Sequence record: PP925842.1
Reading direction: 5' to 3' (one strand)
DNA length: 64,000 bases
Origin: Escherichia phage KookSpook
The position numbers and the translations under genes are program-made. A model generated the notes under the pieces. That model was not told the origin of the DNA. It saw only the letters and a list, made by a program, of their open reading frames with translations, and made no database searches. Positions 37,093 through 39,660 of this stretch are shown piece after piece. Position 1 is the stretch's first letter; every line of letters begins with the position of its first letter.

Positions 37093-37371
37093 TTATGCCC
37101 ACTCACGAAGTGGCTGATCTAATTGAACTATAAAAGGCTCAAAGTATGAGTAAGTAAAGGATTCATCAAGAATCCTTACATTAACATAATATCCTTCATT
37201 ACGAATATATGTCGGCTCCTCGTCACCTGGCTGGGAAGTTTCAGTATACGTGTAGCCAATCTCATCTAGCATTATATAGTTTTGAAGATTTTCATTAGTA
37301 TCCCACTCTATTTGGATAAGGAAATTTTTGTACGTTGCCTTATCCTTAAATCTTAAAGTAATATCTTTCAT
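37093..37371 (-). CDS. Hypothetical protein between the fibre genes (92 aa)
   Basis: ORF with stop/start coupling to neighbours. No motif. Confidence 0.45.
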   Translation of the reverse strand: MKDITLRFKDKATYKNFLIQIEWDTNENLQNYIMLDEIGYTYTETSQPGDEEPTYIRNEGYYVNVRILDESFTYSYFEPFIVQLDQPLREWA

Positions 37372-39281
37372 ATATACTCCTTTACCTGTTTAGCAGTAAG
37401 AGCCCTGTGCCAAATACGAAGGTTTCTTATATGTCCAAACATATGACGTGTACCTGCTGTGGTTTGTCCGCCTATATTTATTAATCCATCACTATATTTT
37501 TGTCTATAATAGGGAGATGTAGCCACCGGGCCTAGAGCACCATCAACTACAACCTGTAATTCTCTATTATCTTTAAATATAAACCCAATGATATTATGCC
37601 TACCAGATCTTGCTAAGTCACTTTTGATCTCTGGAGCTGTACCTTTACCATTTGTAATAATTGCTTTATTACCGTAGGAAACAAAGCCCAAGTACATATA
37701 ACTTTCATCTGTTATATTTGTAGCGTCTCCGACGGTTGATACATTTAATATTCTTGCTGCACCAGTTCTATTTGGCATATCTCCACCATCCCAATTAGTA
37801 TTAACCTCTACTAAAGCACTTAATGCTGGTGAACACCAATTATTTTTAATAGGAAAAGTAACTATATCACTAGCTCTTGTAACAGGTACAGTTTCTGTTA
37901 TAATAAAAGACGACGCACGTAGACCTCCTTCTACTTGGGGAGTAGATACGTAAATATAATCACCTTCTAATGTACCAAGACCCTTAGCAGGTGCATACTG
38001 AACCATAGCACCAATCATACTATCAGTATCTTGGGATTTAATTGTAGCCTGGTAGTATATCCACTTACTACCATAATCCTTTACTGCACTAGCTGTTATA
38101 TCGCTAGCCCTAGTCCCAGTGTATTCAATCTCGAGAGTAGATAGGTTCAGGTATGCATCACCTAAAAAAGTATAAACAGACCCGTCATAGTTTTCAAATC
38201 TAAGTCTGCATCTTAAATTTGCAGTACCACTTTGTACCCTACAGGATATAGTTACATACTTTTCACTTCCAGTAACATCAAAACCCTTACTTCCAGATAC
38301 TGTTACTATATTAATAGCTGATGTTTGTCCTATTAAAGCAGGTTTTACTGTAAACTTACCGAAAGGAAAGCCATAAGTATCGTTACCAGATGCTGATAGT
38401 TCAAGGTTTGAGGATTTATTCCATTTACTTGGGTTAGTACTATTAATTAGAAGGTTAGTTCGTTGCCCCTCTATTAGCATACCTAATTTCTCAAATCTAG
38501 GTTCATCAGTTTCTGCTACACTATACATGCCAGATTTATCTACGTATGTAGCAGCAGAAGCACGTTTAAATTTTATAGCTTTATCACTAGGGATGGTTAT
38601 TTCATCATCTCCAATTACTATCTTTTTATATGAAGGAGAAAAACCAGTAATCATATCTAGAGAGTCATTAAGGGGTGCCCAAACATCTGGAAGAGGCTGA
38701 ATATCAGGAGTAGCATTGGCAGCAGCTTCTGATCTATCAGCTTCAGTTTTCGAACGATCAGCCTCGGTCTTAGCAGTTTTAGCACTAATAGCAGCATTAG
38801 TAGCTTGTTTTCCAGCTTCAGTAGCAGAGTTTGCAGCATTAGTTGCAGAAGTAGCTGCTTGATCTTTTAACGCGGTTGTTTCGGACACAGCACTATTCTT
38901 GATGGTTTGGGTATCAGATTTTAGTTTCTCAACATCTGATTTTAAACCTTGAATAGTGGTTACTGATTGGCTAGCTGAGGTTGCAGAACTAGCTGCATTA
39001 GTTTCACTAGCTTTAGCCTTTGTCTCACTAGACTTTGCGCTAGTTTCCGACGTTTTTGCATTAGTCTCACTAGTCTTAGCAGCTGATGCAGATGCTGCAG
39101 CTTGTCTAGCAAATGTCTCTGCTTCATCTCTAAACTCCTTAGAGTCTGCAGCAGAGGCAGCAGATTCAGCGGCCTTAGTTTCACTAATTTTTGCAGCAGC
39201 AGCTGAGGCAGCAGCTATTAGTCTCACTAGTCTTAGCATTAGTCTCCGAAGTTTTAGCCTTAGTTTCACTAGCCTTAGCAT
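37368..39281 (-). CDS. L-shaped tail fibre, distal segment with LamG-like C-terminal domain (frame-broken relative to 39184..39660)
   Basis: Ala/Ser/Thr-rich repeats (KTSETNAK) then a beta-rich region ending ...IRNLRIWHRALTAKQVKEYI (LamG/ConA-like signature). The N-terminal 25 residues of the ORF are probably out-of-frame readthrough. Confidence 0.6.
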   Translation of the reverse strand: MLRLVKLRLKLRRLMLRLVRLIAAASAAAAKISETKAAESAASAADSKEFRDEAETFARQAAASASAAKTSETNAKTSETSAKSSETKAKASETNAASSATSASQSVTTIQGLKSDVEKLKSDTQTIKNSAVSETTALKDQAATSATNAANSATEAGKQATNAAISAKTAKTEADRSKTEADRSEAAANATPDIQPLPDVWAPLNDSLDMITGFSPSYKKIVIGDDEITIPSDKAIKFKRASAATYVDKSGMYSVAETDEPRFEKLGMLIEGQRTNLLINSTNPSKWNKSSNLELSASGNDTYGFPFGKFTVKPALIGQTSAINIVTVSGSKGFDVTGSEKYVTISCRVQSGTANLRCRLRFENYDGSVYTFLGDAYLNLSTLEIEYTGTRASDITASAVKDYGSKWIYYQATIKSQDTDSMIGAMVQYAPAKGLGTLEGDYIYVSTPQVEGGLRASSFIITETVPVTRASDIVTFPIKNNWCSPALSALVEVNTNWDGGDMPNRTGAARILNVSTVGDATNITDESYMYLGFVSYGNKAIITNGKGTAPEIKSDLARSGRHNIIGFIFKDNRELQVVVDGALGPVATSPYYRQKYSDGLINIGGQTTAGTRHMFGHIRNLRIWHRALTAKQVKEYI

Positions 39282-39660
39282 TAGTCTCAGATGTTTTTGC
39301 TGCGGCTGCTGATTCTGCAGATTTAGTAGCAGACGTAGCGGACTGAGTAGCAGACGTAGCGGACTGAGTAGCAGACGTAGCGGACTGAGTAGCAGAAGCT
39401 TCGGAAGCTCCAGCAGAAATAGCAGCTTCCTGCTCAGACTCTTTAGCGTTAAGCTCTGAAGTCTTAGCAGCTATCTCAGAGTCTTTTGCAGCTGCTGCTG
39501 ATTTAGCCGCAGCCTCAATAGAGGATACTAATTCACTTGCAGTAATAGAGCTAATAGAGTTACCTAGAGTTACAGTGTATCTAGGAAATTTACTAGCAGT
39601 AGCTTTAGTATCATCAATATTTAATATCTGTTGTACAATAATCTTAGTAGTTACTGCCAT
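39184..39660 (-). CDS. L-shaped tail fibre, N-terminal segment ending in a frame break
   Basis: 158 aa ending ...KTSETNAKTSETN then SCCLSCCCKN-stop. The +1 frame continues the same repeat protein. Contains the SATSATQ x3 repeat. Confidence 0.55.
   Translation of the reverse strand: MAVTTKIIVQQILNIDDTKATASKFPRYTVTLGNSISSITASELVSSIEAAAKSAAAAKDSEIAAKTSELNAKESEQEAAISAGASEASATQSATSATQSATSATQSATSATKSAESAAAAKTSETNAKASETKAKTSETNAKTSETNSCCLSCCCKN
39326..39388 (-). repeat. Three perfect tandem copies of a 21-bp unit (GTAGCAGACGTAGCGGACTGA), coding for SATSATQ repeats
   Basis: Read directly from the sequence; a partial fourth copy follows. An exact 21-nt direct repeat TTAGTCTCACTAGTCTTAGCA also occurs at 39061-39081 and 39218-39238. 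Confidence 0.9.

Follow-up and report, generated by a model that had tools for sequence, protein, structure and literature searches.

An extra base splits the lateral tail-fibre gene ltfA in a T5-like phage sequence

Judged by sequence homology, two overlapping minus-strand ORFs in the window (the whole 64-kb stretch of DNA analysed) together make up one gene, ltfA, which encodes the lateral tail fibre of a Tequintavirus (T5-like phage). The restored gene is colinear with intact homologues, the lesion is a single nucleotide and the rest of the window is intact. The favoured explanation, to which a probability of about one half is given, is a recent spontaneous loss-of-function mutation that is real in the phage DNA. 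That the phage truly carries the base, the fibre-less phenotype and the selective history are inferred. Either the window represents an ordinary fibre-less mutant or the record contains a one-base error, and no new mechanism is involved.

The two reading frames and the repaired protein

The initial annotation had described two ORFs with a 98-nt overlap (39184..39281), and their coordinates and overlap are confirmed on the minus strand. The terminal SCCLSCCCKN and the reading of the downstream frame, ...LIAAASAAAAKISETKAAES in the 637-aa ORF, are likewise as it had given them. The span 39660..37368 comprises 2293 nt, i.e., 3n+1. DNA alignment with Stokescottia, Es2, and the closest allele (L071) places the extra nucleotide in the coding-strand context GAGACTAAT[A]GCTGCTGCC, at the junction of a 21-bp heptad array and a tract of Ala codons. 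On the plus strand the tract GCAGCAGCAGCTGAGGCAGCAGCT occupies 39193..39216, its final base, T 39216, being the one that is extra relative to the homologues; the earlier placement of the break at 39213-39222 was thus correct within a few bases. Removal of A 39216 yields a single 763-aa ORF, and the junction region reads GAGACTAATAGCTGC with the extra A and would read GAGACTAATGCTGC, GAGACTAATGCTGCT without it.

Homology to relatives follows the upstream frame until 39217. The stretch read out of frame at the end of the 158-aa ORF is, in the downstream frame, genuine ltfA coding sequence (AAASAAAAKI..., where relatives read AAASAAAAK). Dual coding of the 98-nt overlap was considered and rejected, since either side of 39216 has homology in one frame only. 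Of the 637-aa fibre shaft proposed earlier, 615 residues belong to the real fibre; the 22 at its start, which consist of heptad repeats read out of frame plus the codon with the extra base, are spurious, and the peptide MLRLVKLRLKLRRLMLRLVRL is absent from all homologues compared. The 615 codons 3' of the lesion contain no further stop or frame break, which suggests that the lesion is recent.

Table 1. Features of the fibre gene block and of the region around the break
Feature	Position	Strand	Details
pb4 homologue	40090..42147		685 aa; upstream of ltfC in the tail-tip gene block
ltfC, collar protein attaching lateral fibres	39660..40082	-	140 aa, intact; Pfam PF23926 LtfC, E 1.7e-14
Upstream ORF	39660..39184	-	158 aa; ends ...KTSETNAKTSETNSCCLSCCCKN and stop
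Genuine 5' part of ltfA, codons 1-148	39217..39660	-	LtfC-binding 'lasso' (~1-39) and start of trimeric coiled-coil shaft with SETNAK-type heptads
Perfect 21-bp tandem array	39325..39396		3.4 copies, 100% matches, encodes SATQSAT x3 (Tandem Repeats Finder)
21-bp (heptad) tandem array	39217..39289		3.5 copies, ends exactly at the inserted base (Tandem Repeats Finder)
Downstream ORF	39281..37368	-	637 aa
Spurious N-terminal extension of 637-aa ORF	39217..39281	-	MLRLVKLRLKLRRLMLRLVRL, out-of-frame heptad repeats
Extra nucleotide (frameshift lesion)	39216..39216	-	A on coding strand, T on plus strand; between AAT (Asn148) and GCT (Ala149)
Out-of-frame tail of 158-aa ORF	39184..39215	-	SCCLSCCCKN and TAG stop
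Genuine 3' part of ltfA, codons 149-763 and stop	37368..39215	-	rest of coiled-coil shaft and distal receptor-binding region
Concanavalin/LamG-like C-terminal tip of LtfA	37380..37703	-	Pfam PF13385 Laminin_G_3
92-aa ORF between both fibre genes	37093..37371	-	intact, conserved; phrog_1361 full length, E 4.3e-36
Second fibre protein, LtfB position	35335..37083	-	582 aa, intact; phrog_6921, E 1.4e-179
Hairpin with 13-bp stem	35296..35324		T-runs on both strands; end of fibre operon; consensus scan only

The identity of ltfA is fixed by matches to Pfam, PHROG, and PDB sequences. Residues 1-119 align 1:1 with residues 1-119 of DT57C LtfA (PDB 8HQZ, E 1.6e-34, phmmer against PDB), including S23 and T40. 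In DT57C, residues 1-39 form the anchor and the helix begins at T40 (PMC10713586), and the alignment supports the same anchor and helix layout for the window protein. Residues 3-763 of the repaired protein match phrog_1419 in one stretch across the break (E 2.3e-232), the type also found in Stokescottia, Es2, and mar004NP2-like phages, and the frame of the 3' part matches residues 178-772 of C13 LtfA (tblastn). The LamG-like tip named in the initial annotation is borne out by Laminin_G_3 at residues 527-634 of the 637-aa ORF (E 2.7e-7), with 31.3 bits against a gathering cut-off of 27.6 bits.

Directly 5' of ltfA lies ltfC, whose stop overlaps the ltfA start and which is 92-98% identical, in one frame, to ltfC of C13, Stokescottia, and Es2. 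The order pb4-ltfC-ltfA is that of Stokescottia, Es2, C13, and L071, and the same four have the 92-aa ORF at the equivalent position. The 582-aa fibre protein has a C-terminal intramolecular chaperone domain (Pfam Peptidase_S74, E 1.2e-11), and the hairpin beyond it looks like a bidirectional terminator. The locus resembles that of LtfA in T5-like phages, typified by DT57C LtfA, which has its N-terminus in common with T5 pb1: the gene follows ltfC and pb4, the shaft is an Ala/Ser/Thr-rich heptad coiled coil, and next comes another fibre gene, whose product ends in a Peptidase_S74 chaperone. It differs in the interruption after codon 148, and from both DT57C and T5 in its distal half, a LamG/concanavalin-like tip that lacks an S74 chaperone of its own.

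Relatives and repeats at the break

A single intact ORF is found at this locus in Stokescottia (790 aa), Es2 (784 aa), and C13 (772 aa), as well as in all 20 complete IMG/VR loci (698-1116 aa). The protein of the closest allele, metagenomic P0001 (784 aa, two independent assemblies), covers 100% of the query length at 90% identity. Altogether, ltfA is continuous in 27/27 relatives checked, which identifies the window gene as a disrupted member of this family and not as another family. The restored 763-aa ORF is colinear with every relative examined, and none of the 27 is split at the boundary seen in the window. The comparison with related genomes proposed in the initial annotation therefore bears out its view of one L-shaped (lateral) fibre gene split by a +1 frame break, with no two-gene boundary shared by relatives.

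The tip allele is rare: the best match among deposited phages has 65% protein identity, and the sole close match (90%) comes from metagenome assemblies. Exact look-ups of the 158-, 637-, 92-, 582-, and 140-aa products in a collection of 15 billion proteins gave no match, and the collections searched contain neither this exact ltfA allele nor an intact version of it. When the junction was scanned for as a pattern, both including and omitting the extra base, IMG/VR and GTDB genomes gave nothing; in JGI metagenomes the scan returned 1 contig, which has the motif without the insertion and divergent flanks. Across the 64-kb window, 166 reference ORFs (C13 and fp01) find matches, and two-frame matches occur in ltfA only. 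The absence of a second frame break in 64 kb suggests that the rest of the assembly is accurate.

Tandem Repeats Finder reports periods of 9, 10, 12, 21, and 42 in 37000-40000, so the tandem repeats noted near the break are real. The sole period not divisible by 3 (10 bp, 1.9 copies) lies at 39555-39573, distant from the break. Repeats do flank the lesion; it sits, however, at the array edge and Ala-tract junction, not within a repeat unit as "inside a repeat tract" would imply. Among relatives the tract differs in length by whole heptads only, always in frame, and the window shows three repeat-unit-sized gaps relative to the closest allele within ~150 nt of the break. The region is thus indel-prone through its repeats, but in frame; the earlier statement that repeats favour indels holds for in-frame changes, whereas repeats alone do not explain a 1-nt insertion.

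MAFFT alignment with L071 opens a 20-nt gap at the break, for which loss of one 21-nt unit plus a 1-nt insertion is the simpler account. A single imprecise deletion of 20 nt in a canonical heptad ancestor was rejected, since it would leave T rather than A in front of GCTGCT. The junction could also stem from a hypothetical AAT-GCA-GCT ancestor that lost 2 nt, but this requires a fourth Ala seen in no relative.

Proposed loss of function and its rivals

In the recorded sequence ltfA is a null allele: the single extra A at 39216 throws the reading out of frame past codon 148, and translation from the normal start would give a 158-aa product of 148 genuine and 10 junk residues. This stub would comprise the LtfC-binding N-terminus and ~108 coiled-coil residues, leaving the remaining 615 codons (shaft and LamG-like tip) without an anchor to the tail. 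According to the favoured reading, virions would be without functional lateral fibres and probably without the second fibre too, which in DT57C hangs on LtfA (PMC10713586). Infection would continue via the central receptor-binding protein, with O-antigen-assisted adsorption lost, and the mutation may have been tolerated or favoured on a host where the fibres are unneeded.

The lesion pattern, a small inactivating change that strikes only a side-fibre gene known to be dispensable (PMC4728585) and spares the rest of the window, matches laboratory fibre-less mutants such as lambda PaPa stf, T5hd and LTF-less DT571/2. Rough hosts support growth of an ltfA S23am mutant of DT571/2, and ~30% of DT571/2 clones lost LTF function spontaneously on E. 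coli C600 (PMC4728585); a laboratory-adapted fibre-less T5 is also known (PMC11313276). With viable LTF-less mutants so common on rough laboratory hosts, fibre loss is plausible here. Fibre-less T5 (T5hd1 and laboratory-adapted T5), LTF-less DT571/2, and DT530(1) share with the window the gene module and the phage group, and their loss of LTFs is viable and, on rough E. coli, high in frequency. Of their lesions, however, some are amber or opal constructs, others large deletions across ltfA-ltfB, and the rest uncharacterised, and a 1-nt insertion at the junction of heptad array and Ala tract is not described in the cited literature on fibre-less mutants.

Outside this group the closest comparison is lambda PaPa, whose side tail fibre gene is reportedly split by the stf frameshift into orf401 and orf314, as Hendrix and Duda are said to have described in 1992. 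Both cases present a single-base frameshift that turns a non-essential siphovirus side-fibre gene into two ORFs, in a phage that is, or would be, viable via its central receptor-binding protein. The orf401/orf314 naming and the frequent occurrence of stf frameshifts under selection are documented (15/19 selected stf mutants), and growth on laboratory hosts and plates tolerates or favours loss of the fibres (PMC2762979). Lambda, however, belongs to another phage family with an unrelated fibre anchor, and its mutation is experimentally verified with the ancestral Ur-lambda at hand, whereas the window is known from the record sequence alone.

A one-base record error would give an identical picture, which counts against the mutation reading. 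Under this sequencing or assembly artefact, given odds somewhat short of even, the 763-aa ltfA would be intact in the phage and the extra A a consensus error in the repeat tract, e.g., a residual long-read indel beyond short-read polishing or a mis-resolved repeat. It is favoured by the position of the break exactly at the end of the 21-bp array, by its place among several length changes of repeat-unit size relative to the closest allele, and by the perfectly intact downstream frame. The tract is hard to assemble, as the unresolved run of N in the same place in the fp01 RefSeq record indicates, and a split of ltfC in the T5 reference genome was put down to a 'frame shift error' by the authors of the DT57C work (PMC10713586). 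However, the other genes in the 64 kb are without a frame break, the inserted base lies outside a homopolymer, the usual site of platform indels, and repeat collapse in a k-mer assembler would give whole-unit deletions and no novel 1-nt junction. The affected gene is, moreover, among the few structural genes often lost spontaneously. Of the options named in the initial annotation, the genuine fibre mutation and the sequencing or assembly indel are both compatible with the sequence.

Deposited T5-like genomes contain comparable splits, namely in ltfA of fp01 and in ltfC of T5 RefSeq, PMBT29, and NG_A1, where two overlapping ORFs are annotated and relatives have one. The fp01 split is caused by the N-gap and lies at a different position, and as a two-gene homologue it was rejected as an artefact. 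The ltfC cases differ from the window in that a (GA)n or (TC)n tract has gained or lost a single dinucleotide unit, and none of these splits falls at the window's position. A broader and very unlikely proposal would take ltfC and ltfA, the LTF module in T5-like phages, as a recurrent, possibly reversible on/off target, caught OFF in the window. Small frameshifts, such as the +1 at the heptad/Ala junction and the dinucleotide changes in these three ltfC genes, would repeatedly yield fibre-less subpopulations that are fitter on rough or O-antigen-modified hosts; tail assembly would be unaffected, since the LtfC collar would still be occupied by the LtfA stub of 148 aa.

A contingency (phase-variable) site, at which slipped-strand mispairing toggles the fibre and the window represents the OFF state, is very unlikely. 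The region is repeat-rich and variable in length among relatives, LTF-less variants are unusually frequent in DT571/2 (PMC4728585), and in related genomes the neighbouring ltfC is broken where a short (GA)n or (TC)n tract is one dinucleotide unit longer or shorter. Yet the break (TAAT[A]GCT) has no homopolymer and no 1-, 2-, 4-, or 5-nt repeat, the repeat periods there are all multiples of 3, the length differences are in frame across 27 relatives, and the insertion at this junction occurs in no other IMG/VR, metagenome, or genome sequence. In-frame repeat variation and the lack of a short-unit repeat at the break leave both this switch, which the initial annotation had listed as a slippage-prone site, and a programmed frameshift unsupported.

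Translational recoding, in which a programmed or leaky +1 ribosomal shift restores full-length LtfA, is highly improbable. The downstream frame is indeed +1 relative to the upstream one, and the overlap contains an A5 run: at the candidate site TGC-AAA-AAT-TAG (39195..39184) Lys-tRNA could re-pair on A-AAA, shifted 3' by one base, just before the 0-frame stop, giving ...TSETN-SCCLSCCC-KISETK... with only 8 residues replaced. This A-AAA-A run, 20 nt 3' of the lesion and one codon before TAG, permits re-pairing, but no stimulator is known, and no upstream Shine-Dalgarno-like element comparable to that of prfB is present. With AAA in the P site, the A site does not hold the stop, and the lesion codons ACU AAU AGC are not slippery. 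Every relative is in frame and needs no shift, so there is no conserved recoding signal, and the A4-5 run occurs without such a role in intact relatives as well.

Finally, a genuine two-gene fibre, in which the 158-aa anchor associates non-covalently with a shaft-and-tip protein of ~623-637 aa translated from its own start, is effectively refuted by the related phages with an intact single ORF: DT57C does have branched two-protein fibres of LtfA and LtfB (PMC10713586, PMC4728585), and the extension contains an in-frame ATG (39239..39237) preceded by GGAG (39247..39244, 4-nt spacer), but this GGAG-ATG is a by-product of SETNAK codons that intact relatives also carry, the boundary is shared by no homologue, the putative N-terminus of the second protein consists of out-of-frame repeats without a homologue, and the split would cut a continuous coiled coil.

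Consequences for annotation and host range

The understanding of mechanisms is unchanged by the ltfA break. For annotation, both ORFs are best treated as one disrupted ltfA (pseudogene or frameshifted gene), and they are unsuitable as two proteins for host-range or receptor-binding prediction. If the lesion is an error, the record requires a one-base correction. If it is real, the stock would be fibre-less, which would be relevant to its use in phage therapy or typing, and its measured host range would under-represent O-antigen-bearing strains.

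Locus layout and the two reading frames

The window belongs to Tequintavirus (T5-like phages). Its best match over 24 kb is 'Campylobacter phage C13' (MG065692, UNVERIFIED) with 97% identity, followed by Stokescottia, Es2, fp01, and others at ~88%. The C13 record, which matches window positions 25000-49000, gives C. jejuni as the host, although the genome is that of a Tequintavirus and its fibre genes are of the E. coli/Salmonella type. The window is also matched by several records named 'Listeria phage'; in all of these records the host is probably mislabelled or a contaminant is present.

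According to the ORF list for 36000-41000, the lateral tail-fibre gene ltfA is represented by two minus-strand ORFs, 39660..39184 (158 aa) and 39281..37368 (637 aa), overlapping by 98 nt. The former ends in ...KTSETNAKTSETN-SCCLSCCCKN*, the second frame over the break region reads ...LIAAASAAAAKISETKAAES, and the total span (39660..37368) is 2293 nt, i.e., 3n+1. The initial annotation, which described a fibre gene split by a +1 frame break within repeats, is correct in all these respects. The two ORFs are the head and body of ltfA, because residues 1-119 of the 158-aa product pair one to one with residues of DT57C LtfA (PDB 8HQZ, E 1.6e-34) and the 637-aa ORF ends with a Laminin_G_3 (concanavalin/LamG-like) domain that exceeds the Pfam cut-off (E 2.7e-7).

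Features of the lateral tail-fibre locus (window coordinates)
Feature	Coordinates	Strand	Evidence or position
pb4 homologue	40090..42147	minus	ORF list and profile matches
ltfC (collar gene)	39660..40082	minus	Pfam PF23926
Split fibre gene (ltfA)	39660..37368	minus	between ltfC and 92-aa ORF
Conserved 92-aa ORF	37093..37371	minus	phrog_1361
Second fibre, 582 aa, Peptidase_S74 chaperone domain	35335..37083	minus	Pfam/PHROG matches

The extra base and the gene in relatives

Aligned with Stokescottia and Es2 around the break, the coding strand of the window has an additional A at position 39216: the window reads GAGACTAAT[A]GCTGCTGCC, and both relatives read GAGACTAA(T/C)-GCTGCTGC. Removing this base yields a 763-aa ORF whose only stop is terminal. 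Its product reads ...TSETN-AAASAAAAKISET... as in relatives and matches the 793-position profile phrog_1419 without interruption over residues 3-763 (E 2.3e-232). By homology, the one real frame is that of the first ORF upstream of 39216 and that of the second ORF downstream of it; dual coding in the 98-nt overlap is therefore rejected, and the SCCLSCCCKN tail and the MLRLVKLRLKLRRLMLRLVRL head are both out-of-frame readings. Alignment with the closest allele has a 20-nt gap at the break, best described as a 21-nt heptad that is missing and a 1-nt insertion. A lone 20-nt deletion from a canonical ancestor was rejected, as the observed junction is not obtainable that way.

In relatives ltfA is a single ORF, with 790, 784, and 772 aa in Stokescottia, Es2, and C13, respectively, and 698-1116 aa in 20 of 20 complete T5-like loci from IMG/VR, which share the start MA(V/I/L)(T/K/R)TKIIVQQ. 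Among 5.8 billion proteins searched, P0001 (784 aa) and P0002 (791 aa) are 90% (over 100% of the repaired protein) and 83% identical to it; P0001 is found on two independent assemblies with the shared gene order ltfC, ltfA, 92-aa ORF. The sole other split ltfA among the relatives belongs to fp01 (RefSeq NC_048731, 39481-40170), annotated as two overlapping CDS (229 and 418 aa). Since a run of N lies inside its heptad repeat tract, this split is an assembly gap, not biology. Homologues with two separate genes at the same boundary, which the initial annotation considered as evidence against a break, are thus absent among these relatives.

Real mutation or record error

We estimate the probability that the extra A is a real mutation at about 0.5. 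A one-base record error is a serious possibility, though a less probable one, and all other explanations together are unlikely. The repeat tract whose edge carries the break is hard to assemble, as is evident from the N-gap of fp01, and on either side of the break there are differences from the closest allele, three in all and each the size of a repeat unit. Both points favour an artefact; so does the perfectly intact frame after the break, although a recent mutation would fit it too. However, the context of the extra A is not homopolymeric, the affected gene is known for frequent loss, and the assembly is clean elsewhere. When C13 and fp01 ORFs of at least 80 aa were mapped onto the window with tblastn, 166 matched, and two-frame matches occurred in ltfA only. 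The few cases of partial coverage are explained by window edges, a fragment at the fp01 N-gap, a divergent fibre N-terminus, and the head-decoration protein, whose ORF is intact and whose C-terminal domain differs. The latter protein (56511-56999, 162 aa) has only ~65 N-terminal residues, the capsid-binding part, in common with its fp01 homologue; its C-terminal domain, which is presumably Ig-like, represents a different allele.

Tandem Repeats Finder reports two 21-bp arrays, one at 39217..39289 and the other, which is perfect, at 39325..39396, and further periods of 9, 12, and 42; the plus-strand tract named in the initial annotation is located at 39193..39216. At the break there is no homopolymer or short-unit repeat, and every repeat period nearby is a multiple of 3. 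Tract length among relatives changes by whole heptads (FRDEAE starts at residue 163, 176, 194, or 197), some relatives lack the tract altogether, and in a T5-like Salmonella phage the in-frame deletion A56-A97 arose in vivo (bioRxiv 10.1101/2023.11.08.566301). The whole-heptad differences and this deletion therefore indicate that the repeats promote in-frame indels, so the earlier suggestion that they favour indels holds for these and fails for a 1-nt shift.

All homologues are read without a frameshift, so there is no conserved recoding signal. A translational leak is a theoretical, sequence-based possibility: at TGC-AAA-AAT-TAG, Lys-tRNA may shift by +1 along the A5 run and pair again immediately ahead of the 0-frame stop, which would yield full-length LtfA with 8 substituted residues. 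Translation of an anchor-less fragment could begin at an in-frame ATG at 39239, which GGAG precedes by four bases; the SETNAK codons produce this motif as a by-product. The S-E-T-N-A codons (TCG GAG ACT AAT GCT) hide GGAG-N4-ATG in the +1 frame, at 39237-39247 and in each TCGGAGACTAATG heptad, which explains the plausible-looking starts of the downstream ORF inside the repeats.

Three independent deposited T5-like genomes have a broken frame in the neighbouring ltfC, in each case through one dinucleotide unit gained or lost in a short tract. In comparison with the intact (GA)4 in AAAGAGAGAGATAAG, PMBT29 has (GA)3 (283-308 of the sequence examined) and NG_A1 has (GA)5 (~295-352); the T5 RefSeq NC_005859 (~2295-2319 of the sequence examined; genes T5.135/T5.136) has one extra CT in TTCTCTCTCTTAG, removal of which restores the 140-aa LtfC. 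Recurrent loss of the lateral tail fibre (LTF) module in laboratory stocks and recurrent sequencing errors fit these breaks equally; the tracts may be a slippage hot spot for LTF loss. The window's ltfC is intact and has no GA tract. In the unannotated record of Salmonella phage S.Ent 1-35-3 (OR845038.1), the match to ltfC at 17451-17872 covers 422 nt, not 423, which suggests another 1-nt indel in this gene.

Fibre alleles and predicted consequences for the phage

The repaired tip allele is uncommon in deposited phages (best protein match 65%) and is an ordinary mosaic variant. For the receptor-binding half of LtfA (37368-38700), the best of 50,697 phage records has 65% protein and ~71-73% DNA identity, and a 90% match comes from metagenome assemblies only (ERZ27274201, ERR2619763). 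Other siphoviruses (JenP1, KurtStettler, swan01-like) have related tips on their lateral fibres, as do E. coli prophages on side tail fibres whose N-terminus is PF08400; this points to modular tip exchange between different fibre anchors. The second fibre gene, at the LtfB position, encodes 582 aa here, against 579 aa in C13, 709 aa in fp01, and only 326 aa (6640-7620) on L071, the contig carrying the closest LtfA allele; the two fibre genes thus assort independently.

In DT57C, the dodecameric LtfC ring is threaded by LtfA residues 1-39, and a trimeric helix begins at T40 (PMC10713586); LtfA is thought to carry LtfB (PMC10713586; PMC4728585). The gene as written would encode a stub with 148 genuine residues, namely the anchor and ~108 coiled-coil residues, and no tip; a phage carrying it would be LTF-less. 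The ltfA S23am mutant is able to grow on rough hosts, LTF function was spontaneously lost in ~30% of DT571/2 clones on C600, ltf deletions arose on passage (PMC4728585), and fibre-less, laboratory-adapted T5 is in use (PMC11313276). LTF-less phages are viable. In the lambda laboratory strain, stf is split into orf401 and orf314 (PMC2762979), as Hendrix and Duda reportedly described in 1992. Among selected lambda stf mutants, 15 of 19 are frameshifts (PMC2762979). The ltfA split is a new case of something familiar, either a dispensable side-fibre gene that has been frameshifted or an error of one base in the record.
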